Shown piece after piece: positions 12,836-41,964 of a stretch of 64,000 bases of DNA. The notes beneath the pieces were generated by a model that saw only the letters and a list, made by a program, of their open reading frames with translations, had not been told where the DNA came from and ran no database searches. Source of the stretch: Deltaproteobacteria bacterium (GTDB lineage: Bacteria > Myxococcota_A > Polyangia > Fen-1088). A program made the position numbers and the translations under genes. The stretch lies in NCBI GenBank assembly GCA_016935975.1, contig JAFGPX010000084.1, positions 174 to 64,173 of the forward strand, in the 5' to 3' direction. Every line of letters begins with the position of its first letter. The first letter of the stretch is position 1.

Positions 12836-13345
12836 TCAGTATTCCTCCATGAATATCCCGCGCAAGGCCCAGCCGATCTGCTTGCGGACGTCTTCGACAT
12901 CAATGCCTTGCTGTTTCTTGTCCACCCAGACGTCGTAGAGCCCTTCCACCAAGGCGCCCTTTTCGGCTGACCAGTATTTGTGGCTGTTGAGCATCCTGAT
13001 CGTCTCCGGGCCGAACGCTGCGATCGCGGCGTCGGAGACGTCTAGTGGCGCCAGGGCCGTCTTGGCCAAGCCCGGAGCGCCGATGGGCGGCGTCGTTGTC
13101 CCCTGATTGGCGAGCGGCGGTGACGAGGAAGGCCTCTCCGGCAGCGCCAACCGCGGCGGCGGTAGGGACCGCTTCTTGGCCACTTTCGGTTGGGAGCCTA
13201 ACGTCGCAGCTCTTTCGGCAGACGGGTCCTCCAGCGACGGCTCGCCAGCCACCTTTGGCTCGCGGTTTCCCAACCAGAACCAACCGAGCGGAAGCAGCAA
13301 CAGCAACAACCAGAACCACCGGCCCTTTTTCCTGCGGTTGGTCAT
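12836..13345 (-). CDS. Hypothetical membrane-anchored protein
   Basis: MTNRRKKGR, then a TM helix, Pro-rich linker and small C-terminal domain; RBS AAAGGAG; ECF-like motif upstream. Confidence 0.6.
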   Translation of the reverse strand: MTNRRKKGRWFWLLLLLLPLGWFWLGNREPKVAGEPSLEDPSAERAATLGSQPKVAKKRSLPPPRLALPERPSSSPPLANQGTTTPPIGAPGLAKTALAPLDVSDAAIAAFGPETIRMLNSHKYWSAEKGALVEGLYDVWVDKKQQGIDVEDVRKQIGWALRGIFMEEY

Positions 13346-13408
13346 GGCACTCCTTTGGGTGGGGAAGACGCGTACGAGGATTCTACGCGCGGCTCCCAGA
13401 CTGGTGCA

Positions 13409-13436
13409 ATGCAACTCCGGAGGCGTTTCGATCACA
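13409..13436 (-). promoter_or_regulatory. Predicted ECF promoter TGTGATCGA-N15-GCAT (copy 1)
   Basis: Minus strand tgtgatcga aacgcctccggagtt gcat, about 64 nt upstream of ATG 13345. Confidence 0.7.
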
Positions 13437-13636
13437 GGATTTCCTGGGCTCGGGCAGCATGCGCGACGGGACTGAAGTGATGAACATGGGGGGCTCGTTG
13501 ACAGGGGATCCGTTGTCGCGCACCATGGCCCACGATGCGCCGATACGAGAGAAGGCAGTCCAGCTTTCCATGGGCATGCAACCCACGAGGGCTCGATCCG
13601 GCAACGATGGAGGTGAGGGTCCGGGATGAATGCCCC

Positions 13637-15210: not shown

Positions 15211-16323
15211 CTAGTCTGCCAGTGGGAAGTACGCGTTCGCCTGCCGTGCCATCGAGTCCTCACCCGACGAGGTGGCATGGCAGCTGTCGGACATGACCTC
15301 GCCCTTGGTGCTGTCGAGCTTCCACTGACCGAGGTAGACCACATCCGTGATGCCCTCCGCGGCGATCTTCTTGGCCTCGTCGTCCGTCCATTTGGCGCCG
15401 CCCGTGCCAGCCAGGGTACACTCGTGTCCGGCCTCGTACACCGGCTGCCCCGACAGGTAGATCTTCGTGCCCGGGTTGACGTGAGCCTTCGCCGCCGTGA
15501 TCATCCTCCTCACCTCGTCATCGGTCGCCCTGCTGCTGAAGATGCAGATCATGACCTGGACCCCTTTGACCACGTCCTTCCCTCCGATCGACTGCATCTT
15601 GCGGTCGAAGAGCTGCCAAGAACTGCTATTCGAGTCTGTCCAGTTCTGGACGACCATGGCACCCGTACCATAGCTATCCGAGTTCCACATCACCCCGTTG
15701 CCAACCCGCTTGTTTCCATTGCCGATGTTGTTGGCCATCGAGCATCCGGTATAGGCAATCGCGTTCTTGCCAAAGCCGGTCGTCGGGGGCGTGGTGCCCC
15801 CCGTGCTGGTCGTGCCACCTGTGGCCGCGCCGCCGGTGCCGGTGGTGCGACCACCTGTCCCGGCACGGCCCGTCCCCGTCGTACGACCGCCCGTGCCGCT
15901 CGCTCCAGCGCCTCCAGTTTCACCGCCCGAGCCCTCCACTCCGCCACTGCCCGAGTCTCCGCCGGAGCCAGTCCTGCCTCCAACCATCGTACGACCGCCC
16001 GTACCAGACCGGCCGCCTCTGCCGGTGGTGCCGCCCGACTCCGTGGCGCCGCCGCTGCTGGTCGTGCCGCCCGAGCTGGTCGTGCCGCCCGAGCTGGTCG
16101 TGCCGCCCGTGCTCGTCGTGCCGCCCGTGCTCGTCGTGCCGCCGCTGCTCGTCGTGCCGCCGCTGCTGGTCGTGCCACCTGTATTCTCGTTGCCGCCGCT
16201 GCCGCCGGACTGACCACCCGTGCCAATCACGCTTCCGCCCGTCGATTGCTCACACCCGACGAGCATGAAGGCGGCCAAGCCGATCGGCAGACAGACCCGG
16301 CTGATGATGCGCGCATGGTTCAT
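15211..16323 (-). CDS. Gly-linker lipoprotein with SGNH-like hydrolase domain
   Basis: RBS AGGAGG, lipobox LVGC, SGGTTS repeats, AYTGCSM (block I-like) and DSCH (DxxH) near the C-terminus. Confidence 0.7.
   Translation of the reverse strand: MNHARIISRVCLPIGLAAFMLVGCEQSTGGSVIGTGGQSGGSGGNENTGGTTSSGGTTSSGGTTSTGGTTSTGGTTSSGGTTSSGGTTSSGGATESGGTTGRGGRSGTGGRTMVGGRTGSGGDSGSGGVEGSGGETGGAGASGTGGRTTGTGRAGTGGRTTGTGGAATGGTTSTGGTTPPTTGFGKNAIAYTGCSMANNIGNGNKRVGNGVMWNSDSYGTGAMVVQNWTDSNSSSWQLFDRKMQSIGGKDVVKGVQVMICIFSSRATDDEVRRMITAAKAHVNPGTKIYLSGQPVYEAGHECTLAGTGGAKWTDDEAKKIAAEGITDVVYLGQWKLDSTKGEVMSDSCHATSSGEDSMARQANAYFPLAD
16048..16179 (-). repeat. 18-bp tandem repeats encoding (S/T)GGTTS
   Basis: About 7 near-identical units (gccgcccgagctggtcgt and variants). 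Confidence 0.85.
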
Positions 16324-16376
16324 TGGAAATCTCCTCCTGTTGGACTGACGCCCGCGCGGACGCCCATATCCCATTC

Positions 16377-16404
16377 ATGCGGGCACAGGGCCAAATCGAT
16401 CACA
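16377..16404 (-). promoter_or_regulatory. Predicted ECF promoter TGTGATCGA-N15-GCAT (copy 2)
   Basis: tgtgatcga tttggccctgtgccc gcat, about 54 nt upstream of ATG 16323. Confidence 0.7.
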
Positions 16405-16516: not shown

Positions 16517-17803
16517 CTACGGGAGCGTATAACGCTTCAAGACTTCCCACGCCACGTCGGGAATGGCGAAGGATGCGTAGTTGGCGCAATGCGTGCCGTC
16601 CTGCACCGTGCAGAGGATCGTCTCCACACCCTCCGCGCACTCTGGATACGCCTTGCACGATGCGTTCTCCGGCATCGGTGCCGGAGTACCCGTGCATTGG
16701 TTGATCTGCCCCCATTTCGTGAAGTTCGGTTCCGCCCCGCTGTAGTTCACCATCTGGTCTTTGGTAGCGCGGAACTGTATCTCCGTGATGGGTCGCGAAG
16801 GGTTGCAGGGGGTGGCGACAGTATCGAAATCGACCGGGGCCACCGCCGCGATCACGTCGGCCGCATCGCACGCCAGCTTGTAGGACATCGCGCCGCCGTT
16901 CGAGCAGCCCGTGGCGTAAACGCGTTTGCCGTCGATGCAGGCATCGGTCTTGAGCGCTGCGATGACCGCCTTCACGAAAGCCACATCGTCGACCTTGTCG
17001 GTCGTTGCCGGCGGGCAGCAGCCGCCGCCGTTCCACGACTTCCCGACCCCATCCCCGTAGATTACGAGGATTCCCTCCTTGTCCGCGAGCTTGTCGAAGC
17101 GGGACATCGACTTCTCCATGGCGCCGTCGCCACCCATCCCGTGGAAATCGAAAACGACAGGGAAGGGTGTCTTGCCGGTATAGCTGGTAGGCGCATAGAC
17201 GGTGTAGGTGCGGTCGAGGGTACCCACCGTGATCGTCTTTTTCGTGGATCCGGCCTTGAGCGTGGCGCCTGCCGGGCACTCCCCGCTGCTGCCGCCGCTG
17301 CCGCCGGAAGCTCCGCCCGTGCCCACGCCACCCATCCCCGTCTGTCCGCCGTCGCTCCCGGTCTGCCCGCCCTCGCCCGCGGCCCCGCTGGAACCGCCGC
17401 GACCGGTCGCGCCGCCGCGTCCGCTCGCACCGCCGCGTCCGGTCATGCCACCGCGTCCGGTCACGCCGCCGCGTCCGCTCGCACCACCAGCGGCCATGCC
17501 GCCGCTTCCAATGCGCCCGCCCGTAGACACGCCCCCAGCGCTTTCACCACCACTGCCCACGCCGCCGCTGCCGAGGTCTCCGCCCGAGCCACTCGTGCCT
17601 CCGGAGTCGATTCGCGTGCTGCTCGTCCCTCCCGTGCTGGTTGTGCCCCCGCTGCTCGTGGTTCCGCCCGAGCTGGTTGCGCCACCCGACCCAGATTCCG
17701 CTCCCCCGGATCCACTGGGAGTCCCTGCGGGGTTGGAGGTACACGCGCTCGCCAGAAAGGCAAGCGCCACGAAGAGCAATCTCCTCTGCGGGGCAAAATG
17801 CAT
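16517..17803 (-). CDS. CE1-like / PHB-depolymerase-family esterase lipoprotein with Gly-rich linker
   Basis: Lipobox LASAC, GRGG repeats, PVVFDFHG, SWNGGGCC, DDVAFV, RVYATGCSNGG, C-terminal His. Confidence 0.85.
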   Translation of the reverse strand: MHFAPQRRLLFVALAFLASACTSNPAGTPSGSGGAESGSGGATSSGGTTSSGGTTSTGGTSSTRIDSGGTSGSGGDLGSGGVGSGGESAGGVSTGGRIGSGGMAAGGASGRGGVTGRGGMTGRGGASGRGGATGRGGSSGAAGEGGQTGSDGGQTGMGGVGTGGASGGSGGSSGECPAGATLKAGSTKKTITVGTLDRTYTVYAPTSYTGKTPFPVVFDFHGMGGDGAMEKSMSRFDKLADKEGILVIYGDGVGKSWNGGGCCPPATTDKVDDVAFVKAVIAALKTDACIDGKRVYATGCSNGGAMSYKLACDAADVIAAVAPVDFDTVATPCNPSRPITEIQFRATKDQMVNYSGAEPNFTKWGQINQCTGTPAPMPENASCKAYPECAEGVETILCTVQDGTHCANYASFAIPDVAWEVLKRYTLP

Positions 17804-17960
17804 GGTTGTCTCCTTGGTTGCGAGCCGTCACAGCGCGACCCGGGTCCGACGCCTAGGCGCTGGCCGCCAAACAGCGCCATCAGCGCCGACGCGAACGTCG
17901 CCTTCTCGTGCGCAACGGGTCACTTGGACGCGCTCTCTGCGGGTAGAATCCTGCCCTGAG

Positions 17961-17988
17961 ATGCGCGCAGAAACCTGGTTCGATCACA
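17961..17988 (-). promoter_or_regulatory. Predicted ECF promoter TGTGATCGA-N15-GCAT (copy 3)
   Basis: tgtgatcga accaggtttctgcgc gcat, in the intergenic gap about 158 nt upstream of ATG 17803. Confidence 0.7.
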
Positions 17989-17994
17989 CGATCT

Positions 17995-18864
17995 TCACTG
18001 CGCGATGCAGTTGTCCTGCATGATCTTCCAGATCGCGTCGGCGATGGCCCGTCCCCCGGCATCCGACGCCTGGATCTTGCTCACTGGGTCGGTGTATTCC
18101 GGGTGCCCCGCCCAGATCGGCTGCAGATCGAGGAAGTGACACGCCACTTTGTTCCTATTCGTGAGATCCGTGCATGCCTGTTGCACGAGTGGCCGCAGAG
18201 CGGGAACCCCGTAGATCGTGGGCAGCTCGGGATTGAGGAAGTAGACGATGTGCTCGACCGTTCCGTCTCTCTCCACCTGGTCCAGGAACAGCTCGAAATC
18301 GCTCGCCTCCTTGGCTACCGCGGCGTTCACGTCTCCGCCGTTGATGCCGGCCCAGGTGGTTTCCCAGGTCCCCCCATTCATGATCACCACCTTGAGCTTG
18401 GTGGCACCTGACTGCAGTGACCGGTATTGCTCGGTGATCGCCGCCATGCTGGCGGCTGCGGCGGCGGCCACCCGGTACTCCTCGTTCGGTCCGATGGCCC
18501 GCGCCGCACGTGCGTAGTCCTGGACCGTCGTGTACTGGGAGCCAGGAATGGTCACCCACGAATCGCCTATCCAACCGACCTCGTTCGCCTTCACCTGACC
18601 CTTCACGCAAACGCTGCCACTCTCCGAGTCGATGGCGCCCTCGTCCACTCCCAGAATCGCGTCCTTCCCATCCGCACCGAGAGCCACGTCAGCCGCGTCC
18701 GCGCCAGCCGGCACGTCCTCTCCGTCCGCAGCGACGGCCGCGTCCCCTGCATCCGCCAACGCACGCGCTCTGCCCAGGCGGATCACCTTGCCGTCGCAGG
18801 CAGCGATGGCGACCAAGACCGCCATCGACCAAGCGGTATGCGCGACAAGTGCCGACCTAGCCAT
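17995..18864 (-). CDS. SGNH/GDSL-fold lipoprotein with degenerate catalytic motifs
   Basis: Lipobox IAAC, WIGDSW, VIMNGGTWE, FLDLQPIW..KIQAS (Gln at the expected His position). Confidence 0.7.
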   Translation of the reverse strand: MARSALVAHTAWSMAVLVAIAACDGKVIRLGRARALADAGDAAVAADGEDVPAGADAADVALGADGKDAILGVDEGAIDSESGSVCVKGQVKANEVGWIGDSWVTIPGSQYTTVQDYARAARAIGPNEEYRVAAAAAASMAAITEQYRSLQSGATKLKVVIMNGGTWETTWAGINGGDVNAAVAKEASDFELFLDQVERDGTVEHIVYFLNPELPTIYGVPALRPLVQQACTDLTNRNKVACHFLDLQPIWAGHPEYTDPVSKIQASDAGGRAIADAIWKIMQDNCIAQ

Positions 18865-18870
18865 CGCCTA

Positions 18871-18880
18871 ATGGTACCAT
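18871..18880. promoter_or_regulatory. Palindromic extended -10 (ATGGTACCAT), putative bidirectional leaderless promoter
   Basis: Reads TGgTACCAT on both strands, 7 nt before ATG 18888 (+) and 6 nt before ATG 18864 (-). The 23-bp gap has no RBS. Confidence 0.6.
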
Positions 18881-18887
18881 CCTCGCG

Positions 18888-20060
18888 ATGCTCCCGGGCA
18901 GTGCCCTCTTGGTTGCGTTCCTGTCGCCCCTCGTCTTGGGCGCGGCCGCAAGCTCGTCTCCCGCGCCGATCACGAGCGTCCGTCTCGATGTGCGGGCCGC
19001 GCCCGGCTGCACCTCGCGCGGCGATCTGGTGACACGCGTCACCTCGCGCTCCTCGCGTATCCGGTTCGTCGACGACGGCGCGTTCGTGGCGCAGGCGACA
19101 TTTGCAGCACCACGGCCCGGAAGCGTCACCGCGGAGATCACGCTGACCGCCGCCAACCGCAAGCCGTCGCGGCGCAGAGTCGTCGCCCGTTCCTGCGCCG
19201 AAGCGGCCGACGCCATCGCCCTCATCATCGCCGTCACCCTGGATCCGACGTTGCCACGGAACGCCGTGGCCAGGCCCAGCGACGACCAGGACACCGCTGC
19301 GGAGAGCGAAGCGGCTTGGCAAACGCCATCGCAGTCCGCAGAAGACATGGCGAGCCCCTTCGATTCCGCTCCCGCGCCCGGCCCGAAGCCGGCAGTCAAG
19401 CCAGTCAGGCAAGCGGTCGCCACGCCGGCAAAGGCCGCGACGGCTCTCGCCAAGCCCAGCGCGATAGCTCCTGCAAAGGCCGCCACGCCGGCTCCCCTGG
19501 AAACCGCGGCGCCGGAATCGCCCGCCACCTCCGCCCCGCCGCGACATGTCTTGAGCGCGCACGTGGCAGGGCAACTGCTGTTCGGCCCCGCTCCGAGCGT
19601 CATGCCCGGCGTCGCAGTCCAGATAATGGCCGGAATGGATCGCGAAGGCCTGTGGTCACCGGCAATCTTCCTCGGCGCGACACACGTGTGGCGAGCGGGC
19701 CTGCGCGAGACGGGCGGGACTGCGTCCTTCACGCTCGATGCGGGAAGTCTCGACGCATGTCCGCTGCGCGCGCGTCTGTCTTTCCTCGAGGCGCGCCCGT
19801 GCGCGTCCGTGGTGGTTGGCCGGCTCGTCGCGGGCGGCGATGACACCGACGATCCCGCAACCGTGTCGCGCCCCTTCGCGTCCGCCGGCGGCGCTGCCAT
19901 CCTGACCGCCGGCCTGGGCGCCATCGTCGAACTGCACCTGCGCCTCGCCGCGGGCGTGACGCTGGTACGCGACTCGTTCGAATTCAGCCCGATCGTCTTC
20001 CACCGCGCCGGGCTCTTCACGACCTCGGCCAGCCTGGGCGCGGGCGCACGTTGGCCTTGA
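18888..20060 (+). CDS. Exported protein with N-terminal Cys-pair domain, Pro/Ala linker and probable C-terminal beta-barrel
   Basis: Signal peptide; PGCTSR..ARSCAEAADAIALII; alternating hydrophobic strands ending LGAGARWP. Confidence 0.6.
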   Translation: MLPGSALLVAFLSPLVLGAAASSSPAPITSVRLDVRAAPGCTSRGDLVTRVTSRSSRIRFVDDGAFVAQATFAAPRPGSVTAEITLTAANRKPSRRRVVARSCAEAADAIALIIAVTLDPTLPRNAVARPSDDQDTAAESEAAWQTPSQSAEDMASPFDSAPAPGPKPAVKPVRQAVATPAKAATALAKPSAIAPAKAATPAPLETAAPESPATSAPPRHVLSAHVAGQLLFGPAPSVMPGVAVQIMAGMDREGLWSPAIFLGATHVWRAGLRETGGTASFTLDAGSLDACPLRARLSFLEARPCASVVVGRLVAGGDDTDDPATVSRPFASAGGAAILTAGLGAIVELHLRLAAGVTLVRDSFEFSPIVFHRAGLFTTSASLGAGARWP

Positions 20061-20097
20061 CCGACCGGGCCCTGGCCGCGGCACCACAGAGCGACGG

Positions 20098-20841
20098 CTA
20101 CGGCCGCACGAGACCGGCGATCCGCGACACCCTATCGGCCAACACGGTTCCGCGGTGATCCGCCACGAATCGCTCGGCCAGCCTCCGCGCCTCGGCATTT
20201 CGCCCGAGCTTGACCAGTGCCTCGACCTTGAGCGCCGCCGCTTCGGGAAGGAAGCTGCCGGCGGGGTACCTTTCCTGATAGCGGCGCAGGAGATCCAACG
20301 CGCGCCCGCTGCTGCCATCTGCAATCGCCACACGCGCGGCATCCAGTAGCGCGATCTGTTCTCGCAAGACGCCGACGGCCGGGGCAACGCGGCCTCGCGG
20401 GGCCGGGACGGACGCGCCCGCGGACGGCTCGGCCGCCCGGACATTCCCCTGCGCCGGCGAGCCGGGCAGCGGTGGTGCCACGGCTGGCGCCATCGTCTGG
20501 GAAGCGGCCGGACGTGGCTCCGTGGGCGAATCCTTCCAGGACTGGACGCCGATGATCGTCCCGGCGACGGCCAAGCCGAGCACGCCGGCAGCAATCCACG
20601 GCCACACGGCCGTCGCGCCCACGCCCGCGGTCGCCTTGGACGCCACCGCCTCGGCGGCCAGCTCTTTCGCGACGGCCGCGACTCCGAGCGCGGCAGCAGA
20701 CGCGCCGATGGCCTGGGCCATACGCGCGGACATCTCGGGTGACGGCCGTTCATTCGCTGCAGCCCCGAGCAGCCGCCGTTCGAAGTCGGTCGCGCCTTCT
20801 GCGAGCAACGGTTCTGGCAGATCGTCAAGTGGGCGGTTCAT
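20098..20841 (-). CDS. Putative anti-sigma factor (single TM, periplasmic TPR-like domain)
   Basis: Overlaps the sigma stop by ATGA; TM WPWIAAGVLGLAVAGTIIGV; C-terminal helical repeat ALDLLRRYQERYPAGSFLPEA. Confidence 0.7.
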   Translation of the reverse strand: MNRPLDDLPEPLLAEGATDFERRLLGAAANERPSPEMSARMAQAIGASAAALGVAAVAKELAAEAVASKATAGVGATAVWPWIAAGVLGLAVAGTIIGVQSWKDSPTEPRPAASQTMAPAVAPPLPGSPAQGNVRAAEPSAGASVPAPRGRVAPAVGVLREQIALLDAARVAIADGSSGRALDLLRRYQERYPAGSFLPEAAALKVEALVKLGRNAEARRLAERFVADHRGTVLADRVSRIAGLVRP

Positions 20842-21404
20842 GCCTCCCCTTCCTTCCGCAGACTTCTTTCGATGCGTGCCGCTGCGGCACGGAATTGCTC
20901 GCGCGCGCGGCGCAGTCGAGACGCCACACTGCCAAGTGGGATCTCGAGCAGCGCCGCGATCTCCGGCGAAGACAGGCCCTCTAGCTCATAGAGGACGAAT
21001 ACCTCTGCCAACTCGGGGTTCACCCGGGCCAGCGCCAGGTCGCAAAGCTGGATGTCGGCCCGCCGTTCATCCGCGTCACGGAGGCCGGACAGGCGTTTGT
21101 CCATGTCTTCGTCCAGCTCCCAGCGCACGACCTTGCGGCTGAGCGTGTGCGCCATGCGCAGCGCGGTTTGGATCAGAAAGGCGCGTTCGCTTTCCGGGCG
21201 AATGTCGGGCAATCGACCGGCGGCGAGTAGAAACGTCTCCTGCGTCGCATCCGCGGCGGCATCGGGAGCCAAGCCGCGGCGACGCAACGCGCGCCAAACG
21301 ATCGCGTGGTGGTCATTGAACATCCGCTCCAAACGGGTTCGGTCCACCAACCTTGGATCGAGTGGTGGCTCCTCAGGGGATGCCGTTTTCAGGCTATGAA
21401 CCAT
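20838..21404 (-). CDS. ECF RNA polymerase sigma factor
   Basis: Region 2 VWRALRRRG..AADATQETFL; region 4 VFVLYELEGLSSPEIAALLEIPLGSVASRLRRAR; about 188 aa. Confidence 0.93.
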   Translation of the reverse strand: MVHSLKTASPEEPPLDPRLVDRTRLERMFNDHHAIVWRALRRRGLAPDAAADATQETFLLAAGRLPDIRPESERAFLIQTALRMAHTLSRKVVRWELDEDMDKRLSGLRDADERRADIQLCDLALARVNPELAEVFVLYELEGLSSPEIAALLEIPLGSVASRLRRAREQFRAAAARIERSLRKEGEA

Positions 21405-21437
21405 CCGCCTGTCCCGAGAATGACTCTGCATAACGAT

Positions 21438-21464
21438 ATGCGTGCAGTTCGCTCGTTCGATCAC
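21438..21464 (-). promoter_or_regulatory. Predicted ECF autoregulatory promoter GTGATCGA-N15-GCAT (copy 4)
   Basis: gtgatcga acgagcgaactgcac gcat, about 34 nt upstream of the sigma ATG. Confidence 0.72.
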
Positions 21465-21542
21465 CAAAAGCATAGCACTGCTAGAGCTGCTCGCGCCAAG
21501 TGCGGCTAGGCGTTGCAGGTTTGGGTCGTCCGAACCTCGTCT

Positions 21543-21555
21543 CGTAACGGTTACG
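21543..21555. promoter_or_regulatory. Palindrome CGTAAC-G-GTTACG, possible repressor operator upstream of the CE15-GH2 cluster
   Basis: AT-richer inverted repeat in the divergent intergenic region; only one copy seen. Confidence 0.3.
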
Positions 21556-21702
21556 TCACGGTTCGAGAACCGTGGCGGGCTGGACTCCCAAGGCAGTCGC
21601 GAGCATTGCTCGACAGTATGGGTAGTTCGCAGTTCGCGGGAAGTTCGTGGCCTGGCTCGGGCGGCCGGCTCTTCCGTGATCGCTCGTGAATCGGGAGTCA
21701 GC

Positions 21703-23403
21703 ATGGCAAATACACTGCTTCGTTCATTGATGGTCATTGGTCTAGGCGCCCTCCTTGTCTCATCGTGTTCAAATGGCGCGTCCACCCAAGAGATCACAGG
21801 GGGCGCGACGGGCGCGGGCGGTATCTCGGGCGGAGCGGGCGCCGATTCTGGTGGCACCAGCGGCTCGGCCGGGTCTGGCGGCTCGGCCACCACCGGTGGT
21901 GCGTCGGGGAGCGGCGGAACCAGCGCGAGCGGCGGCGCGTCCAGCAGCGGCGGGTCGGCCGGGAGCGGCGGTGCCGGTGTAGCCGGCGGCTCCTCGGGCC
22001 AGGGCGGCGCGTCCGGCACTGGCGGCGTTCGCCCAAGCGGCGGCGCGTCCGCAAGAGGCGGCGCGTCCGACGCAGGTGGCGCTCGGCCTAGTGGCGGCGC
22101 GTCCGGCAGAGGCGGCGCAACCGGCACCGGCGGCGGCCAGCCGGCAGGTGGCTCGGTCGGCGCAGGCGGCACCAATGTGGGAGACGCCGGAACGGGAGGG
22201 GGCACCGGTGACGGCGGCGCCGACGGCGGCTCGATCGGCAGAGGTGGCTCGACCGGCGCGGGCGGGGACATGCCCCTGGTCTATGACGTGGAGAACACCG
22301 GCGCCGACTGCCAAGTACCGACAAGCTTTCCGGCGTTCAGCGCGCTCAAGGCCGTCGCGAACCTGCCCGATCCATTCTTGATGGAAAGCGGCACACGCAT
22401 CTCCAGCCGCAGCGAATGGGCCTGTCGGCGCGCCGAGATCAGCGCCCAAATCCAACACTGGGAGCTCGGGACGAAGCCAGCCCCTCCGGCTGACAGCGAC
22501 GTTACGGCCACCTACTCGGGTGGCAAGCTCACGGTAGTCGTCAAGGTGGGCTCGCAGTCGGTCACGCTGACCAGCACCATCACCACGCCCAGCGGCACCG
22601 GCCCCTTCCCGGTCATGATCAAGATGGACGGGGCCGGGGTTCCGGTTTCCGGAATCGCGACCATGAGCTTCACCAGCTCCGCGCTGGCGGCCCAGATGCC
22701 CACCCGGGGCACGGGAACGTTCTGGAACCTCTTCCCGGACAAGACCGCGGGCGCGTACGCCGGCTGGTCGTGGGGCGTCAGCCGCCTCATCGACGGCCTT
22801 TTCGAGACAGCCGACCAGAACAAGATCGACGTGAAGCGTATCGGGGTGACCGGATGCTCGTACGCGGGCAAGATGGCGCTCTACGCCGGGGCCTTCGACG
22901 AGCGCATTGCGCTTACCATCCCCGAAGAGTCCGGCGGCGGCGGGGAGGCGGCCTGGCGCGTGTCATCGACGCTGAAGGATGCGGAAGACCTGGATCACGC
23001 TCAGGGCACGGGCTGGTATTCCGCGAATCTGAACCAATTCAAGAACGCGGATGCTCCGAAGCTGCCCTTCGACCAGCACGAGCTTGCGGCCATGGTGGCG
23101 CCCAGGGCACTCCTGACGATTGGCAACAACGGCATTTCCTATCTGGCAAGCGAGGCTGGCTACGTTTCGATGAAGGCTGCCACCGAGGTCTACAAGGCGC
23201 TCGGGGTCCCAGACAGGATCGGCTACTCCATAAACGGCAACAACGGCCACTGTGCATTCCCGTCCTCCCAGGCGCCGGACGTACAGGCTTTCGTAGACAA
23301 GTTCCTCCTTGGAAAGACCGCAAATACGGCCGTCGCAAAGAGCCCCACGTACAGCAGTGACCTGAAGAAATGGATTAGCTGGGACACGCCGACTCTCAAG
23401 TAG
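21703..23403 (+). CDS. CE15 glucuronoyl esterase lipoprotein with Gly-rich linker
   Basis: Lipobox LVSSC, LPDPF, WACRRAEI, WSWGVSRLID, GVTGCSYAGK, AFDERIALT, ESGGGG, LPFDQHEL, GHCAFP. Confidence 0.9.
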   Translation: MANTLLRSLMVIGLGALLVSSCSNGASTQEITGGATGAGGISGGAGADSGGTSGSAGSGGSATTGGASGSGGTSASGGASSSGGSAGSGGAGVAGGSSGQGGASGTGGVRPSGGASARGGASDAGGARPSGGASGRGGATGTGGGQPAGGSVGAGGTNVGDAGTGGGTGDGGADGGSIGRGGSTGAGGDMPLVYDVENTGADCQVPTSFPAFSALKAVANLPDPFLMESGTRISSRSEWACRRAEISAQIQHWELGTKPAPPADSDVTATYSGGKLTVVVKVGSQSVTLTSTITTPSGTGPFPVMIKMDGAGVPVSGIATMSFTSSALAAQMPTRGTGTFWNLFPDKTAGAYAGWSWGVSRLIDGLFETADQNKIDVKRIGVTGCSYAGKMALYAGAFDERIALTIPEESGGGGEAAWRVSSTLKDAEDLDHAQGTGWYSANLNQFKNADAPKLPFDQHELAAMVAPRALLTIGNNGISYLASEAGYVSMKAATEVYKALGVPDRIGYSINGNNGHCAFPSSQAPDVQAFVDKFLLGKTANTAVAKSPTYSSDLKKWISWDTPTLK

Positions 23404-26359: not shown

Positions 26360-28060
26360 ATGCCACGTTGGCTCGCTTTCCTAGCCCTGGCATTGCTCGG
26401 GTCGGTCAGGGTGGCGTCGGCCAAGAGCCTGATCGACTACTTCCAGCCCACACCCATCGTGAGCCCGCTCAGCTCGAGCACGTGGGGCGGCTCGGGCGTG
26501 CTCCCGCGCGACACGAGCAATGGCCTCGAGACGCCGGACAAGAAGTACTTCTACTGGGACGGGAAGATCCTCAAGGTCGACGGCAAGTACCACCTCCATT
26601 GCAGCCGCTGGCCCAAGAGCGCCGGCTTCAACCAATGGTCCACGTCCATCGCGGTCCACGCCACGAGCGACAACGTCTTGGGGCCTTACCTCGACCAGGG
26701 CCAGATCTACGATCGCAACGGCGGCAAGGGCCACAACGTGGCGACCCTGGCGCTGCCGGACGGCAGCTTCACGCTCTACACCAGCGACATCACGCCCGGC
26801 GACTTCTACACTGCCCCCGCCATCACCGGACCCTGGACCTTCAAGGGCTCGATCGAGATCAACAAGAACGGCTACGACATCCCCTGGCCGACCTCCAACA
26901 TCACGGTCATGGTTCGCCCGAACAACGGCGATTTCCTGGCCACGGAACGGAGCGGGTTCATCTATGTCGGCGGTAGCGAGCTGCTCGGCCCGTACGAGGT
27001 CAAAGGCCCTAGCGTCTGGCCGAACGTCTCCGGCCTGGACAACTCCAGGGCCGAAGACCCGGTCCTCTGGTACAGCGGAGGCTGCTACCACATCACGGTG
27101 AACTGGTGGGATTCCCGCGTTGCGCACCACCTCATGTCGAAGGATGGCGTGAGCGACTGGAAGGACATGGGCGTGGCCTACGATCCCCGGACGAGCTTCA
27201 TCCGCTACACCGACGGCACGGTCAACAAGTGGAACAACCTCGAGCGCCCCAACGTCGTCATCGAAAACGGCCACGTCACGCACTTCACCTTCGCGGCCAC
27301 GGACATCGACAAGAGCTCGATCACGGGAACCGACAACCACGGCAGCAAGATCCTCGTGGTCCCCTTCGACGGCGTGGCGTTCGATGCCGACAACGGTTGC
27401 GAAAGCGGCACGGGTGGGGCCGGCGGCGGTGGAGCGAGCGGTCGCGGCGGCTCGAGCGGCGCGGCTTCGTCCGGCGGCAGTGGCGGCTCGCCGCGAAGCG
27501 ACGCGGGTGCCACCGGCGGCACCGCAGGATCTCGCGACGGGGGACGAGGTGATGTCGGAAACGGATCGGGTGGCTCCTCTGCGACCGGGGGCAAAGCGGC
27601 GACGGGCGGGAAATCAGGCACCGGCGACACGCCCGCAACCGGTGGGGCAACGGCGACCGGCGGTCCGGCAGGAGCAGGTGGCGCATCGGGATCGGGCGGC
27701 GTGTCGCCCAGTGGCGGCAAGCTCGCAAGCGGAGGCGCGGCCGGCGCAGGCGGCGAGCCGGTCACTGGAGGTGCGACTTCCTCGGCCGGCGGAGTCCGCG
27801 GCGCCTCGAGCAGCGCGGGGCTGGGCAGTGGTGGCGCAACGACCTCGAGCGGCGCGAGCAGCTCGTCATCGAACGGTTGCTCGTGTGGGATGACGGCCGC
27901 GACCGGCAGCCGAGGCGCATGGCCGTGGCTGCTCCTCGGCTGGTTGCTCGGCCTTGGCGCGCGCCGCCCGCTGACCGGGGCTCGCTTGCTCCGAGGCCTG
28001 GCGAAAGCGGCAGGCAGCTCCGCGGCGGATGCACGACAGTCAGAGACTCATCGGCAGTAG
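26360..28060 (+). CDS. Glycoside hydrolase (GH43-like beta-propeller) with Gly linker and MYXO-CTERM-like anchor
   Basis: Signal peptide, YWDGKI, KGHN, AEDPVLW, LERPNV; C-terminal GCSC, then TM, then RR. Confidence 0.75.
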   Translation: MPRWLAFLALALLGSVRVASAKSLIDYFQPTPIVSPLSSSTWGGSGVLPRDTSNGLETPDKKYFYWDGKILKVDGKYHLHCSRWPKSAGFNQWSTSIAVHATSDNVLGPYLDQGQIYDRNGGKGHNVATLALPDGSFTLYTSDITPGDFYTAPAITGPWTFKGSIEINKNGYDIPWPTSNITVMVRPNNGDFLATERSGFIYVGGSELLGPYEVKGPSVWPNVSGLDNSRAEDPVLWYSGGCYHITVNWWDSRVAHHLMSKDGVSDWKDMGVAYDPRTSFIRYTDGTVNKWNNLERPNVVIENGHVTHFTFAATDIDKSSITGTDNHGSKILVVPFDGVAFDADNGCESGTGGAGGGGASGRGGSSGAASSGGSGGSPRSDAGATGGTAGSRDGGRGDVGNGSGGSSATGGKAATGGKSGTGDTPATGGATATGGPAGAGGASGSGGVSPSGGKLASGGAAGAGGEPVTGGATSSAGGVRGASSSAGLGSGGATTSSGASSSSSNGCSCGMTAATGSRGAWPWLLLGWLLGLGARRPLTGARLLRGLAKAAGSSAADARQSETHRQ

Positions 28061-30449: not shown

Positions 30450-31553
30450 CTACCAGCGCACGACCACGCGCAGGATTGCCAACAGGAGCTTCCACACCGG
30501 CTCCACCACATGGGTGACAATCGGGCCGCGGAAACCAGGGTAGTCGATGACCGCGGCGAAGTGGCGGAGGATCTCGCGGTCGGGCACCCGGCGGATCGCG
30601 GCGACGGCGCGCCGGCCGCGCCACAGATAGCGCCAGGCCGTCGGGCGCACGAACCACAGAAGCGAGCGCAGCTTGGCGCCCAGCCAGCCGCCGCGCGCCG
30701 CCATGAAGAGCAAACCGAGATCCGCAAGCAGGAGGGCCGGGAGCAACAGCAAGACCGTCGGCAAACGGTAGTTCTTGAGCACCACGATCCAGCGGTTGCG
30801 CTCCATCCAGTACCACTTGGACGTGGCCCGCGAGAATTCGTAGTAGTGCCGGCATACGCTGGCCGGAGCCACCACGTTGCGCAGGCCCGCCACGCGGATC
30901 CGCCAGCCCAGATCCAGATCCTCGTGGTAGAGCCAAAGGGTTTCGTCAAAGAGGCCCACCCGTTGCAGCACCGGCACCGGCAGGAGCACGCAGGCCCCGG
31001 ACGAAAACGCGATGTCGCGCGGCCCCGGCGGCACGGCCGCGCGCGCCCCCAGGTAGCCGCCGACGTAGCCGAAGCCCAGGAAGTGAATGAGGTTGCCGCT
31101 GGAATTGACCTTCTCGGGCTCGCTGCCCAGCACGAGCAGCGACTGCACCGAGCCCACGTCCGCGCTGCCCTCCGCCGCGTCGACCGCCTCACGCAGAGCC
31201 GCGCGCTCGCAGGTGGCGTCCGGGTTGAGCAAGAAAACGTAGTCGACGCCGCGAGCCGTGGCTGCCCGCAAAGCGAGGTTGTTGGCAGCCGCGAAACCCA
31301 GGTTGCCGCCCGGCTCATGCACCACCACGGACGGCAGGCGATCCCCGAGGCGTTCGATCTCCCGCCGCGCCGCCGCCAAGCTGCCGTCGCCGGCGCCGTT
31401 GTCCACGAGATGGAGTTCCAGCCGCTCACGGGGGTACTCGACCTCCGCAATGCTGGCAAGCAGGCCGGGCACGAACCTCTCGCAGCGGTAGAGGACCGTC
31501 ACCACGGCCACGCGCGGGAGCGATGCATCCGTCTCGGTGCTCAACGCCCGCAC
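30450..31553 (-). CDS. GT2 family glycosyltransferase
   Basis: LVDNG, NLGFAAANN, FLLNPD, SGAC, FDETLWLYHEDLDLGWR. Confidence 0.92.
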   Translation of the reverse strand: MRALSTETDASLPRVAVVTVLYRCERFVPGLLASIAEVEYPRERLELHLVDNGAGDGSLAAARREIERLGDRLPSVVVHEPGGNLGFAAANNLALRAATARGVDYVFLLNPDATCERAALREAVDAAEGSADVGSVQSLLVLGSEPEKVNSSGNLIHFLGFGYVGGYLGARAAVPPGPRDIAFSSGACVLLPVPVLQRVGLFDETLWLYHEDLDLGWRIRVAGLRNVVAPASVCRHYYEFSRATSKWYWMERNRWIVVLKNYRLPTVLLLLPALLLADLGLLFMAARGGWLGAKLRSLLWFVRPTAWRYLWRGRRAVAAIRRVPDREILRHFAAVIDYPGFRGPIVTHVVEPVWKLLLAILRVVVRW

Positions 31554-32753
31554 CTACTTGCGCGAAGGCGCTTGCGCATCCTCGGCGGCCAATTCCGCCA
31601 ACACCTTGAGCGCAGCCGCCCGCTTGGCCGCCCTGCCGGCTGGCCGTTCCGAGCCACCCGGCGAGGACGCGGGAGCAGGGCTCGCAGATGCCGCCCCGGC
31701 GCCCCCGTTTCCGGGTTTGGCGCTCTTGGCGGGCGGCGGCGCCGGCAGCGGCTCGGGTTTGGGAGTCGTCGCGGCCCGGAAGGCGGGCAGCACCTCCTTG
31801 AGAAAGCGCCCGCGTTCGGCCGCCTCCTCGGCGATGGCCTTCTTGTAGATGGCGTGCATCAACTCCGACACCCTGGCCGAGTCCGTGCGCGGCGCCGCCT
31901 CCGCGATGGCGTCCGACAGCGCCAGCCGGAACTCCTCGGCGCTGGCGAAGCGCTTGCCGCGATCGGGGGCCAGCGCGCGCATCACCACCGCGTCCAGGGC
32001 CGGCGTCACCCACGGGGCCCGCGACGACGGCGGCATGGGTTTGGGATGGCGCACGACGGCCAACGCGGCCACGGGATCGAGTCCGGCGATCTGCAAGTAC
32101 TGATGCCCGGTCAGAAGCTCCCACAGCACCACGGCGAGCGAGTACACGTCGGTACAGGGATCGGCGACCTCGCCGCGCGCCTGCTCGGGCGCCAGGTAGG
32201 CCGCCCGTCCGAACACCACGCCGGGCTGCGTGTGTTCTTCCTTGAGGGCGCTTCTCGCCAGACCGAAGTCCGTCAGTTTCACGTCGCCGTTGTAGGCGAG
32301 CATGATGTTGGGCGGCGCCACGTCGCGGTGGACCAGATTGAGCTCGCCGTACGTGTGCACGAAGGACAGCGTGCGCGCGACCTCGCGTGCCACCTGCAGC
32401 GCGACCTCGAGCGGGATACGATGACGTACGCGCACGCAGCGGTTCCACACCTCGCGCAGATCCTTGCCCTCGACGAGCTCCATGGCGATGTAGAACTCCC
32501 GGTCGACCTGGCCGGCGTCAAAGGTGTTGACCAAGCCAGAGTGGGAAAGCCGCAACACCACCTTGGCCTCGTCCAGAAACCGCTTGGCCTTGCCCTCGTC
32601 CGCCTTCTCGGGAATGACCTTCTTGATCACGCACAGCTTGTCGAAGCCGTCGAGCTGGCCCAAAGCCGCCACGTAGATCTCCCCCATCCCTCCCTTGGCG
32701 AGGGGCTTGAGCAAGACATACTTGCCGAACTGTCGCGGGTAGGCGGCGGCCAT
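31554..32753 (-). CDS. Ser/Thr protein kinase (cytoplasmic)
   Basis: LAKGGMG, VIKK, HRDVAPPN, DFGLA, YLAPEQ, DVYSL. Confidence 0.93.
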   Translation of the reverse strand: MAAAYPRQFGKYVLLKPLAKGGMGEIYVAALGQLDGFDKLCVIKKVIPEKADEGKAKRFLDEAKVVLRLSHSGLVNTFDAGQVDREFYIAMELVEGKDLREVWNRCVRVRHRIPLEVALQVAREVARTLSFVHTYGELNLVHRDVAPPNIMLAYNGDVKLTDFGLARSALKEEHTQPGVVFGRAAYLAPEQARGEVADPCTDVYSLAVVLWELLTGHQYLQIAGLDPVAALAVVRHPKPMPPSSRAPWVTPALDAVVMRALAPDRGKRFASAEEFRLALSDAIAEAAPRTDSARVSELMHAIYKKAIAEEAAERGRFLKEVLPAFRAATTPKPEPLPAPPPAKSAKPGNGGAGAASASPAPASSPGGSERPAGRAAKRAAALKVLAELAAEDAQAPSRK

Positions 32754-32803
32754 GACTGCGGACCCCGTAGCTTATCAGCGGGCCGGGCCGTACGTCGCCT
32801 ATT

Positions 32804-39969: not shown

Positions 39970-41964
39970 TCAGAACTCGATCTGCATGCCGATCTCGACC
40001 ACTCGGTTGGGCGGAATGGCGAAGAAGTCGGTGGCCGGGCGCGCGTTGCGGGACAGGAAGCGGAAGAGCTGCTTGCGCCAGGCGGCCATGCCGAGGCGGC
40101 CGGGCTTGGGGATAATGGTCTCGCGGCCGAGGTAGAAGCTGGTGTCTGCGGCTTTCGTTTCGAGGCCGTTGGCCCGGCAGCGCCGTAGGATATCGGTCAC
40201 GTCCGGGCTCTCCATGAACCCGTAGTGCGCGGTGACCCCCCAGAAGCCGAGGCCGAAGTCGCGCAGGCGGATCTTCTGCTCCTCGCGCACCGCGGGGACG
40301 GCGTCGGTGGTGATCGACAGGATCACGACCTTTTCGTGCAGAACCTTGTTGTGCTTGAAGTGGTGCAGAAGGACGGTGGGCGTCCCGCGCGGGGTCGACG
40401 CGAGAAAGACCGCAGTGCCCGCCACGCGATGGGGCTTGTTTGCCCCCACGTCGGCCACAAACGTGGTCAGCGGCAGCGTGCCGGCCGCCACCTTCTCGCC
40501 GAGGATCGTCCGGCCGCGATTCCACGTCACCATCACGCTGAACACACCCGCGGCCAGGGCCAGCGGCACCCAGCCGCCGGTGCTGATCTTCGCCACGCAC
40601 GAAACGAAAAAGGAGAGGTCGATGCACAGAAGCACCAGCAGCAAGGCCCCCGCGCGCAGCCAGCTCCAGCCCCAGCGCTGCCGGGCCACGAAGAAGAACA
40701 GGATCGAGGTGATGGTCATCGTGCCGGTCACGGCGACGCCGTAGGCTGCGGCCAGGTTGCTCGAGGCGCGAAAGCCGAGCACCAGGGCCACGCAGGCCAC
40801 CATGAGCAGACGGTTCACCTCGGGGATGTAGATCTGTCCCTCGGTGGTGCCCGAGGTGTGCACCACGGTCATGCGAGGCAAGTACCCCAGTTGGATGGCC
40901 TGGCGGGCGATCGAGAAGGCACCCGAAATGAGGGCCTGGGACGCGATGACGGTCGCCACGGTCGCCAGCGCCACCATGGGGTAGAGCCATCCCGAGGGTA
41001 CCAGGGCATAGAAGGTATTGCTGACCGCGGTCGGTCGTTCGAGCAGAAGCGCCCCCTGGCCGAAGTAGTTGAGCAGCAGGGCGGGCAAGACGCAGGCATA
41101 CCAGGCCAGACGGATGGCGCGGCGGCCGAAGTGACCCATGTCGGCGTAGAGCGCCTCGCAGCCGGTGATGCACAGGACGACGGATCCCAGCACGAAAAAC
41201 CCGTGCATACCGTGGTCGGCGAAGAAACGAACCGCGTGCACCGGGTTCACCGCGAAAAGGATCTCGGGATGCCGGACGATCCACGGCACGCCACAGGCGG
41301 CGATGGCCAGGAACCAGAGCAGCGTGACCGGGCCAAACACGGAGCCGATGCGGCCGGTGCCACGCTTCTGCACCCAGAAGAGACCGATCAAGATCGCACA
41401 AGTGAGCGGCACCACGATGGGTTGGAAAGCTCGCGTCGCCACGCCCAGCCCCTCGACCGCCGAGAGTACGGAGATGGCCGGAGTGATCACCCCCTCGCCC
41501 GTGAGCAGCGCCGCACCGAAGAGCCCCAGCATGACCAGGACGAAGCTCGTGCGCTTGACGTCGTGCCAGTTGTGGCGCCTGGGCTTGGCCTTCTCTTGCC
41601 GTTGCGCGCTTCTGGCCCGCCCCACGCGCGCGGCCAGGGCCATGAGCGCGAGCACCCCGCCCTCGCCGCGGTTGTCGGCGCGCATGACGAACAAGATGTA
41701 CTTGGCCGAGACGACGAGAACGATGGCCCAGAAGAACAGGGACAGAAGCCCGAGGATGTTCTGCACCTGGGGCACGACGCCATGAGGCAGTGTCACGCAT
41801 TCCTTGAGCGCGTAGAGCGGCGAGGTGCCGATGTCGCCGTAGACCACGCCCACCGCACCCAGGGCCAGCCTGCGAATGTCCGCGCCTTGCTGCGGGCTCG
41901 CCTTGGCGCTGTCCTGCCGCGCACTGGCCGCGCTGACGGTGGTGCTCGCCTTGCCTTCGCTCAT
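39970..41964 (-). CDS. kup: Potassium uptake transporter
   Basis: GVVYGDIGTSPLY, MRADNRGEGG, ITPAISVLSAVEG, TGCEALYADMGHF, LNYFGQGA, GQIYIP, FYLGRET. Confidence 0.96.
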   Translation of the reverse strand: MSEGKASTTVSAASARQDSAKASPQQGADIRRLALGAVGVVYGDIGTSPLYALKECVTLPHGVVPQVQNILGLLSLFFWAIVLVVSAKYILFVMRADNRGEGGVLALMALAARVGRARSAQRQEKAKPRRHNWHDVKRTSFVLVMLGLFGAALLTGEGVITPAISVLSAVEGLGVATRAFQPIVVPLTCAILIGLFWVQKRGTGRIGSVFGPVTLLWFLAIAACGVPWIVRHPEILFAVNPVHAVRFFADHGMHGFFVLGSVVLCITGCEALYADMGHFGRRAIRLAWYACVLPALLLNYFGQGALLLERPTAVSNTFYALVPSGWLYPMVALATVATVIASQALISGAFSIARQAIQLGYLPRMTVVHTSGTTEGQIYIPEVNRLLMVACVALVLGFRASSNLAAAYGVAVTGTMTITSILFFFVARQRWGWSWLRAGALLLVLLCIDLSFFVSCVAKISTGGWVPLALAAGVFSVMVTWNRGRTILGEKVAAGTLPLTTFVADVGANKPHRVAGTAVFLASTPRGTPTVLLHHFKHNKVLHEKVVILSITTDAVPAVREEQKIRLRDFGLGFWGVTAHYGFMESPDVTDILRRCRANGLETKAADTSFYLGRETIIPKPGRLGMAAWRKQLFRFLSRNARPATDFFAIPPNRVVEIGMQIEF

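Follow-up and report, generated by a model that had tools for sequence, protein, structure and literature searches.

A candidate trans-envelope ECF sigma switch with an outer-membrane-type barrel partner in a Polyangia bacterium

A stretch of 64,000 nucleotides (nt) from a Deltaproteobacteria bacterium of the class Polyangia (assembly GCA_016935975.1, contig JAFGPX010000084.1, positions 174 to 64,173 of the forward strand), hereafter called the window, contains four adjacent genes for an extracytoplasmic function (ECF) sigma factor, a single-pass membrane protein that is a candidate anti-sigma factor, an exported protein of an unnamed family that we call P2, and a lipoprotein of the SGNH fold. 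We propose, with moderate confidence, that the first three form a trans-envelope sigma switch, in which the ECF sigma, an anti-sigma with a tetratricopeptide repeat (TPR)/BamD-like domain and P2, as a barrel of the outer membrane (OM), control esterase genes. The proposal is based on the structure of the genes, the folds of their products, the conserved linkage, a promoter motif with its copies and a co-fold prediction performed with controls. The coordinates of all the features are collected in Table 1.

The sigma factor, the anti-sigma candidate and P2

An initial annotation of the window had described four adjacent genes here. The four open reading frames (ORFs) are all present, and their G+C content at third codon positions (GC3), which is 0.72-0.81 across the four frames, is of coding type, in agreement with that description. 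P2 is read from the plus strand, whose product is the only one with homologues. An antisense ORF at 18857-20020 has the same GC3, but its product is R/S/A-rich junk unsupported by homologues and it was rejected as a gene.

The product of the sigma gene is a bona fide ECF sigma factor. In Pfam it matched Sigma70_r4_2 (E 1.8e-13, 50.4 bits, cut-off 25.7) and Sigma70_ECF (E 1.7e-5), the r2 domain being slightly below its cut-off of 24 (21.6 bits, E 1.9e-4), and TIGR02937 scored 54.2 bits (cut-off 42.9). With sigma2 and sigma4 domains only and a length within the usual range of about 180-200 amino acids (aa), the protein belongs to the ECF (group 4) type. Its orthologues adjoining P2 in related loci share 56-78% identity with it. 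The stop codon of the sigma gene overlaps by 4 nt the start codon of the following gene (ATGA), a GGGGAGG Shine-Dalgarno sequence stands just upstream, and the product of this second gene has one hydrophobic segment; the coupling of an ECF sigma to a protein with a single transmembrane (TM) segment, as initially annotated, was thereby confirmed.

In the alignment of 31 orthologues, the anti-sigma candidate is formed by a short conserved cytoplasmic N-end (aa 1-50), a TM segment at about aa 80-100, a Pro/Ala linker and a C-domain (aa ~157-247). The hydrophobic segment is conserved as PW(I/V)SxGVxGLVVAGAxVG, and the order sigma>anti-sigma is kept wherever a related locus still has both genes. 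A periplasmic TPR-like domain had been proposed for this protein. In the copy of the window the matches to profiles of the TPR clan stay under the cut-offs, at E about 0.005 for the best of them (range 0.005-0.06), but 16 of the 31 orthologues match YfiO/BamD (best 9e-6), and there are also matches to TPR_19 (9/31) and TPR_14 (8/31).

P2 gave no family in the Pfam and NCBIfam searches (Pfam at E up to 0.1). In its AlphaFold model, which was built on 58 homologues, it is possible to distinguish a signal-like N-terminus of low confidence, an N-domain, a tether and a barrel, so that the Cys-pair domain, the flexible linker and the amphipathic C-terminal strands that had been described are all found in it. 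The Cys pair of the N-domain corresponds to the invariant C41 and C103. The structures closest to this domain are TolB N-terminal domains (1c5k_A, Z 8.5, root-mean-square deviation (rmsd) 2.4 over 94 aligned residues; 7mx5_B, Z 8.3), at values only slightly above the Z of 7-8 that is typical, in the structural aligner used (VIA), for the best matches of unrelated folds. It has no sequence similarity with the TolB N-terminal domain and there are no tol-pal genes nearby. Among 828 candidates (E up to 0.001), no fusion of the N-domain into a longer protein, such as a large receptor, was found, which is weak evidence. The tether contains 28 Ala and 18 Pro, and its length differs among homologues.

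The C-terminal part of P2 (aa 220-390) is modelled as a closed, antiparallel barrel of eight strands with a hydrophobic face, an OM-type barrel at the level of the fold only, in accordance with what had been annotated. Foldseek matched it with probability 1.0 to OmpA (6.3e-6) and OmpX (3.1e-5), and also to TtoA, NspA, Ail, OprF and OmpW. The VIA alignments placed it, at Z 15-17, beside 3dzm_A (TtoA, Z 16.8, rmsd 3.2, 160 aligned), 1p4t_A (NspA, 15.2), 2f1t_A (OmpW, 15.0) and 4rlc_A (OprF, 14.9). The strands are amphipathic, with alternating hydrophobic and polar faces, C291 and C305 are invariant, and the protein ends in RWP. No sequence family (PF13505, for example) matches the barrel, and the nearest named clusters in the ESM Atlas, OMP_b-brl at 0.84-0.86, are taken as a lead only. 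The most conserved segments of the barrel outside the strands are GPAPxVMPG and L-x-RDSYEF...FHRA; under the usual topology of OM proteins, with both ends of the barrel in the periplasm, they would be surface loops.

The contact between the N-domain of P2 and the TPR domain of the anti-sigma, which the initial annotation had postulated, was addressed by co-folding aa 150-247 of the anti-sigma candidate (alignment of 31 rows) with aa 24-126 of P2 (58 rows), together with three controls. The pair passed with an interface score (ipSAE) of 0.82 (0.83, 0.81 and 0.82 in the individual runs), while the controls gave 0.00-0.01, the best of them 0.01. At least 77% of the contacts were common to the runs, and the predicted local distance difference test (pLDDT) of the partners was at least 84. 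The pass mark is reached by 58 of 80 solved complexes and by 2 of 110 mismatched pairs, counts that hold only roughly here, our own alignments being the input. We know of no solved complex of this kind, and for this reason it seems unlikely that the pass comes from a remembered complex. The predicted interface has at its core helix 103-118, the most conserved segment of P2, which faces residues 159-174, 196-207 and 229-241 of the anti-sigma candidate; D167, R170, E200, and E207, the only four charged positions that are invariant in the anti-sigma C-domain, all fall within it.

Taking the gene neighbourhood into account, the sigma gene and/or the anti-sigma gene directly adjoin P2 in 36 of 37 loci of GTDB genomes (tblastn). 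Both are next to it in 33 loci, and the three loci with one of them are truncated by the end of a contig. The single exception, L056, has a truncated P2 and neither gene. The convergent order of the window occurs in 32 loci and the co-directional order P2>sigma>anti-sigma in 4, and the loci from a genus-level search present the same linkage. In more distant P2-like loci, with about 25-35% identity, a co-directional sigma homologue follows in 13 of 14 distinct loci, and the proposed co-occurrence across genomes was thus observed among both close and distant relatives. Six metagenome-assembled genomes (MAGs) carry two complete modules each. One of the distant loci is in the genome under study itself, where a second, distant module is on contig C148 (locus L002), with a P2-like gene (26% identity), sigma and anti-sigma genes in co-directional order and a related promoter motif between the P2-like and the sigma gene.

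P2 homologues were present in 14 of 61 related genomes, its own included: in 10 of 12 of the same genus and in 2 of 2 and 1 of 2 of two sister genera, while the remaining 40 genera of the sample had no homologue. In a word-indexed search there were 276 matches, all of them "hypothetical" and devoid of Pfam domains, with Polyangia as the only taxon named. A hidden Markov model search of 1.84 billion representatives gave 4,401 relatives at E up to 1e-3 and 1,602 at E up to 1e-10. In a phylum-wide sample, where 8 candidates per genome were scored with the P2 profile, 5 of 251 genomes (its own included) were positive, all of the same class, and the ESM Atlas returned only unnamed Myxococcota clusters. 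As far as found, the P2 module is so far specific to Polyangia.

Promoters, putative regulon and the SGNH-fold lipoprotein

A motif with fixed spacing, nTTTCnGTGATCGAAT-N13-nGCATA, was present in 32 of 35 regions upstream of the sigma gene, and it looks like an ECF -35/-10 pair. When the genome of 5.39 Mb was scanned with a position weight matrix (PWM), 6 sites had a score of 18 or higher, against 0 in the reversed genome used as control; 4 are on the contig of the module, 1 is at the C148 paralogue and 1 on contig C45. The core of the motif, TGATC-N17-GCAT, was found 68 times in the 37 loci (332,644 bp), compared with a mean of 0.75 and a maximum of 2 in 20 shuffles. These 68 sites comprise 31 sigma promoters, 13 sites divergent from sigma, 12 just past the stop codon of the SGNH gene and 12 elsewhere. 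The window has four core sites, all in the minus strand and between 13.4 and 21.5 kb, at 21463 (sigma), 17986 (428-aa gene), 16402 (387-aa gene) and 13434 (small membrane protein). Considering that the 23 core matches of the whole genome are close to a rough chance estimate from base composition (about 16), only this local cluster of four is meaningful. Two weaker PWM matches, at 53869-53904 of the window (minus strand, score 18.8, lacking the GATC core) and at 6610-6645 of contig C45 (minus strand, score 20.9), may be due to chance.

The gene behind the second promoter copy, a position that is occupied by such a copy in 12 related loci, encodes a putative feruloyl-esterase-like lipoprotein with the lipobox LASAC and a Gly/Ser/Thr linker of ~150 aa. 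Its homologues adjoin the module in many loci and recur on either side of it. The product behind the third copy gave no Pfam or PDB sequence match; its probable start is the second Met, with the lipobox LVGC, and homologues are located near the module in three related loci (L025, L042, and L049). The fourth copy precedes the small membrane-anchored protein. It was observed that the C-terminal ...KYWSAEKGAL... of this protein is apparently also encoded just upstream of the sigma promoter of locus L035, as read from the DNA. The feruloyl-esterase-like protein, the 387-aa protein and the product of the CE15 gene that is divergent from sigma all have a lipobox followed by a low-complexity linker of 150-170 aa rich in Gly, Ser and Thr; these linkers give spurious tblastn similarity among the N-termini of the lipoproteins.

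No sigma-type motif with a PWM score of 5 or more was detected upstream of P2 and the SGNH gene (18500-19300, both strands) or upstream of CE15 (21405-21720, plus strand). In the four co-directional loci (L043, L044, L055, and L057), the TGA that ends the P2 gene lies inside the -35 box of the sigma promoter that follows (GTGATCGAA), and by this overlap P2 is read as lying outside the autoregulated unit.

The lipoprotein encoded divergently from P2 had been described as a degenerate SGNH protein, and at the level of the fold this was right. It had no match in Pfam or NCBIfam; its AlphaFold model has a pLDDT of about 90+ over aa 90-289, and Foldseek found, all with probability 1.0, the CE2 structure 2wab_A (2.9e-6), the acetyl-xylan esterase 7ddy_A (5.3e-6), TesA 1j00 (6.8e-6) and the CE3 structure 2vpt (2.2e-5). 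The lipobox Cys23, which is followed by a linker of ~60 aa, and four more Cys are invariant in the 21 aligned members. The Ser of the WIGDSW motif (S102) is kept in 17 of them and replaced by T in 3 and by G in 1, and the column of the block-V His is occupied by Q, F, L or V in 21/21. The DGIH of 9otv_A and 6vjp_A aligns to "dgiq" in this family, in profile alignments that are weak (PDB profile search, E 0.015-0.24). The family has, then, the SGNH fold and lacks the SGNH/GDSL catalytic combination of block I Ser and Asp-x-x-His, and a non-catalytic binding role would be plausible. The gene divergently adjoins P2 in 27 of the 37 loci (tblastn), and is a frequent accessory and not an obligatory part of the module.

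The start codons of P2 and the SGNH gene are separated by 23 nt (18865-18887), a spacing that recurs in many related loci. This spacer contains the palindrome ATGGTACCAT, which on either strand has the form of an extended -10-like element, TGnTAnnAT, 7 nt before the ATG of P2 and 6 nt before that of the SGNH gene. The element ATGnTAnCAT is kept 7 nt upstream of the P2 ATG even in loci devoid of the SGNH gene. The arrangement suggests two divergent leaderless mRNAs, for P2 and the SGNH lipoprotein, from a shared element of housekeeping type; a scan of 17800-21800 for the sigma-70 consensus and for terminators gave 0 sites of either kind.

Table 1. Features of the window: location, strand and supporting evidence.
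Feature	Coordinates	Strand	Evidence
ECF (group 4) sigma factor, 188 aa	20838..21404	-	Pfam and TIGR02937 matches
Single-pass membrane anti-sigma candidate, 247 aa	20098..20841	-	ATGA overlap, 31-orthologue alignment, YfiO/BamD matches
P2, exported protein of an unnamed family, 390 aa	18888..20060	+	AlphaFold model m28fae7b3031f; 276 homologues
P2 N-domain (predicted periplasmic), aa 29-118, beta-alpha-beta4-alpha	18972..19241	+	pLDDT about 95
P2 disordered Ala/Pro-rich tether, aa 123-220, 98 aa	19254..19547	+	pLDDT <50
P2 C-terminal 8-stranded OM-type beta-barrel, aa 221-389	19548..20054	+	pLDDT about 90; Foldseek, VIA
Lipoprotein of SGNH fold without the catalytic His, candidate pseudo-esterase, 289 aa	17995..18864	-	AlphaFold and Foldseek
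Palindromic ATGGTACCAT element in the P2/SGNH divergent spacer	18871..18880		Conserved as ATGnTAnCAT in most related loci
Candidate ECF-type promoter upstream of sigma, TTTnGTGATCGAA-N14-GCATA	21435..21470	-	PWM 36.2, best of 6 genome matches
Second sigma-type promoter copy, immediately past the SGNH stop codon and about 155 nt before the feruloyl-esterase-like gene	17958..17993	-	PWM 18.8; core present
Putative regulon member: lipoprotein, 428 aa, feruloyl-esterase-like (PHB-depolymerase-family) domain	16517..17803	-	9j07_A E 1.5e-23, 8jh8_A 1.9e-15
Third promoter core copy, upstream of the 15211-16374 ORF	16377..16402	-	Core TGATC-N17-GCAT at 16402
Putative regulon member: lipoprotein, 387 aa, GGTTS-type long linker, C-terminal domain of no known family	15211..16374	-	Translation
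Fourth copy of the motif, before the gene of a small membrane-anchored protein (within ORF 12836-13435)	13406..13441	-	PWM 20.3; core site
CE15 glucuronoyl esterase lipoprotein (context)	21703..23403	+	PF22244 GCE_fung 6.7e-74; lipobox LVSSC

Proposed mechanism and alternative readings

In the mechanism that we propose, P2 would be located in the OM, and its barrel would hang the disulfide-containing alpha/beta domain into the periplasm by means of the Ala/Pro tether of ~100 residues. The tethered domain would dock on the TPR domain of the anti-sigma, and the making or breaking of this contact would set the stability or the activity of the anti-sigma, so that sigma is released. Free sigma would then transcribe from promoters of the type TGATCGAA-N14-GCATA both its own operon, as a positive feedback, and neighbouring genes for surface lipoproteins; its targets in the window would be the feruloyl-esterase-like enzyme together with two functionally uncharacterised proteins. 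P2 and the His-less SGNH lipoprotein would be constitutively co-expressed from the shared palindromic -10-like element, and since they are not behind sigma-type promoters they would be upstream parts, sensors or regulators, and not outputs. In this scheme we infer the localisation of the components, the direction of the regulation (a lock or an activator, that is, RseB-like or FecA-like), the regulated proteolysis and the nature of the signal.

With respect to the signal, we lean towards a plant-polymer cue sensed at the surface because of the esterase outputs, the co-expression of a pseudo-esterase with P2 and the conserved segments that presumably form surface loops. An esterified fragment of the plant cell wall would be the most likely signal, and this is the weakest step of the mechanism. 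A more ambitious version, where the small barrel with its conserved loops, helped by a dead SGNH lipoprotein that binds such fragments, senses the substrate outside and signals, independently of TonB, through the tether to the TPR anti-sigma, as a main route by which Polyangia, with thousands of variants of the family and at least two per genome in some MAGs, would match their esterases and carbohydrate-active enzymes (CAZymes) to the polymers at hand, seems to us rather doubtful. The polysaccharide-sensing relay of the initial annotation can be maintained in part: the barrel, the co-occurrence of the genes, the co-fold of the N-domain with the anti-sigma and the degenerate SGNH fold are in its favour, but the lipoprotein is not obligatory (27/37 loci) and the link to CAZymes is narrower. 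As for the latter, the module was said to be surrounded by CAZyme genes; a CE15 glucuronoyl esterase, a GH2, a PL1 pectate lyase and the feruloyl-esterase-like alpha/beta hydrolase are indeed present near it, but the CE15/GH2/PL1 cluster is devoid of a sigma-type promoter.

Several points weigh against the proposed switch. The evidence for it is wholly in silico, and a search of sequencing runs listed no RNA run with this DNA. The binding of the anti-sigma candidate to sigma is suggested by the ATGA overlap and the gene position, and none of the anti-sigma domain families (zf-HC2, RsdA, and others) was detected in the protein of the window or in its 31 orthologues. Regarding P2, it is the modelled fold that points to insertion in the OM; its signal peptide lacks a basic n-region, and its last residues are Trp-Pro in place of a terminal aromatic. 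The likeness of its N-domain to TolB-N is borderline and a description of shape only, at a Z that is common for unrelated folds. To the rough calibration of the co-fold it must be added that the predicted interface is only slightly richer in conserved columns than the domains as a whole, both in P2 (10/24 interface residues, 31/103 in the domain) and in the anti-sigma candidate (7/23 and 24/98, respectively). The 37 related loci are kin and not independent samples, and in 10 of them the SGNH gene is missing next to P2. Finally, the PWM scan found no sigma-type motif before the CE15/GH2/PL1 cluster, and therefore the link to polysaccharides rests on one identified esterase family.

Among the alternatives, the one that survives best is a lock for envelope stress, of the RseB type, in which P2 would be a constitutive co-anti-sigma and would shield the anti-sigma from proteolysis with its tethered domain. 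The system would then report the integrity of the OM or periplasm, or the assembly of P2, and not a nutrient, and the esterase genes, as genes for lipoproteins associated with the envelope, would be in the regulon incidentally. The co-fold result fits this reading equally well, and the same can be said of P2 not being sigma-dependent and of the BamD/YfiO-type TPR-like domain matched by 16 of the 31 anti-sigma members; however, the promoter copies stand recurrently before genes for esterase-type lipoproteins and not before chaperone or protease genes. A tether that roughly spans the periplasm would suit a sensor of spacing or integrity, and the barrel of eight strands has no channel or obvious ligand pocket, but the presence of two modules in six MAGs and of thousands of family variants fits many specific inputs better than a generic stress, and the two most conserved segments of the barrel outside the strands would, with the topology assumed above, be exposed at the surface. 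On balance we regard the stress lock as unlikely.

It is also conceivable that neither P2 nor the SGNH lipoprotein takes part in signalling, both being structural or enzymatic proteins of the envelope that shared ancestry has left beside an ordinary sigma/anti-sigma pair, and the co-fold a false positive. The related loci all being kin within one class, the mild enrichment of conservation at the interface, the 2 of 110 mismatched pairs that reached the co-fold mark and the computational nature of the support for P2 signalling would all be compatible with this. Nevertheless, the genes stay adjacent when their order changes and when identity falls to about 25%, the sigma gene stands beside a P2-like gene in 13 of the 14 distant loci, and the three controls gave 0.00-0.01 against 0.82 for the pair, so that we consider this explanation improbable. 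Least probable of all, and very improbable in our opinion, is that P2 is an output, an OM protein regulated by sigma as fecA is for FecI, with its N-domain only feeding back on the anti-sigma: the receptor gene of classical cell-surface signalling itself depends on the sigma factor, and weak or divergent promoter copies could escape the PWM, but the region around the P2 start gave no motif on either strand, the co-directional loci have the sigma-type promoter after P2, overlapping its stop codon, and a different conserved element, the extended -10-like one, precedes the P2 start by 7 nt.

Relation to known systems and neighbouring genes

ECF sigma factors are among the largest families of bacterial signalling proteins. 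To our knowledge, the only well-understood route from the OM to an anti-sigma factor is that of the TonB-dependent transducers. In the module of the window, what seems firmly wired to the sigma/anti-sigma pair is an OM partner of another kind, whose contact domain also differs. Although unnamed and without a Pfam model, the P2 family counts 4,401 representative relatives in metagenomes. Should the contact prove true, it would assign a function to this large family of "hypothetical" proteins, provide a defined set of promoter, sigma, anti-sigma and partner for tests in reporter strains, and make it possible to investigate the sensing of substrates of the lignocellulose type by uncultured myxobacteria of soil and sediment. 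It would likely be a new wiring of the cell surface to esterase genes for the plant cell wall.

In the RpoE-RseA-RseB system, a third protein binds the periplasmic domain of the single-pass anti-sigma, and OM proteins are involved in the signalling. By comparison, a third protein is also predicted on the periplasmic domain of the anti-sigma candidate, where it could control proteolysis; it would be a tethered OM barrel in place of the soluble periplasmic RseB, and the candidate targets are esterase lipoproteins in place of folding factors. The MucB_RseB and RseA families were not detected in the proteins of the module (Pfam and NCBIfam). In the Rcs system (RcsF-IgaA), a protein anchored in the OM spans the periplasm to reach a regulator of the inner membrane, and the length of the tether matters. 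Rcs is, in contrast to the proposed sigma switch, a phosphorelay, and RcsF is a lipoprotein threaded through OM proteins and not a barrel with a tethered domain.

The general scheme of Fec-type cell-surface signalling, as outlined in PMC2729926, consists of an OM protein with a periplasmic N-domain, a single-pass regulator and an ECF sigma. The likeness to FecA-FecR-FecI, including the Pseudomonas cell-surface signalling systems, lies in the three envelope-spanning parts and in the N-domain of the OM protein as the proposed contact with the periplasmic end of the regulator. P2, however, is modelled as a plug-less barrel of eight strands that lacks Plug, STN and TonB-box, whereas the Fec protein is a TonB-dependent transducer of 22 strands; the N-domain of P2 differs in fold and is carried by a disordered tether of ~100 aa. 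The regulator is TPR/BamD-like at its end and lacks a FecR domain (0/31 orthologues), and the FecI model NF041727 gave 28.3 bits on sigma against a cut-off of 260. Domain searches likewise revealed no TonB-dependent transducer, Plug, STN or FecR domain in the proteins of the module. The annotated absence of a nearby TonB-dependent receptor held: the 9 Plug matches of the genome are all on other contigs, with 0 on that of the module, and none of the large ORFs of the window is such a receptor. Transport cannot be coupled to signalling here. The module thus resembles cell-surface signalling in its working and differs from the Fec type in every membership test.

The ECF sigma/anti-sigma pairs of the polysaccharide utilization loci of Bacteroidota sit among genes for CAZymes, and a response to glycans has been proposed for them (PMC10766802). 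The module shares with these systems, which have SusC-like transducers, a sigma/anti-sigma pair placed among CAZyme genes; it has no SusC/SusD pair or TonB-dependent transducer, and the taxon, the sigma promoter and the OM partner are different. In Clostridium thermocellum, multiple paralogous SigI-RsgI modules tune the genes for plant-cell-wall degradation, according to the same source (PMC10766802). Multiple paralogous sigma/anti-sigma modules per genome are a common trait; unlike our module, SigI-RsgI is Gram-positive, the anti-sigma itself carries the carbohydrate-binding sensor and there is no OM component.

A precedent for a small barrel is SigX-CfrX-CmpX-OprF of Pseudomonas (ECF102), a conserved ECF neighbourhood that includes an OmpA-type barrel of eight strands suspected to be a regulatory part (PMC7826278). 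In OprF the barrel is N-terminal and is followed by a peptidoglycan-binding C-domain, whereas in P2 the order is reversed and the periplasmic domain is another one; a gene for a mechanosensitive channel is absent from this locus. A direct contact between barrel and anti-sigma is not described in the portion of PMC7826278 at our disposal. The literature search returned no description of this module or of the P2 family; the supplements of the ECF reclassification (PMC7826278), which hold the neighbourhoods of the groups, were outside its scope and might list the group of this sigma.

Some observations were made on other genes of the window. A GT2 glycosyltransferase is encoded in 30450-35647 (minus strand), and upstream of it there are two genes for Ser/Thr protein kinases, one of which (947 aa) has C-terminal TPR repeats. 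The open frame of 1,261 aa at 40225-44010 (plus strand) has its UbiD-family domains confined to the C-terminal half (aa 669-1115), and its long N-terminal part may come from a start called too far upstream in high-GC DNA. The ORFs at 26360-28060 (plus strand, 566 aa), which sits between the GH2 and the PL1 pectate lyase genes, and at 46049-48568 (minus strand, 839 aa) have GC3 of coding type and belong to no Pfam family.

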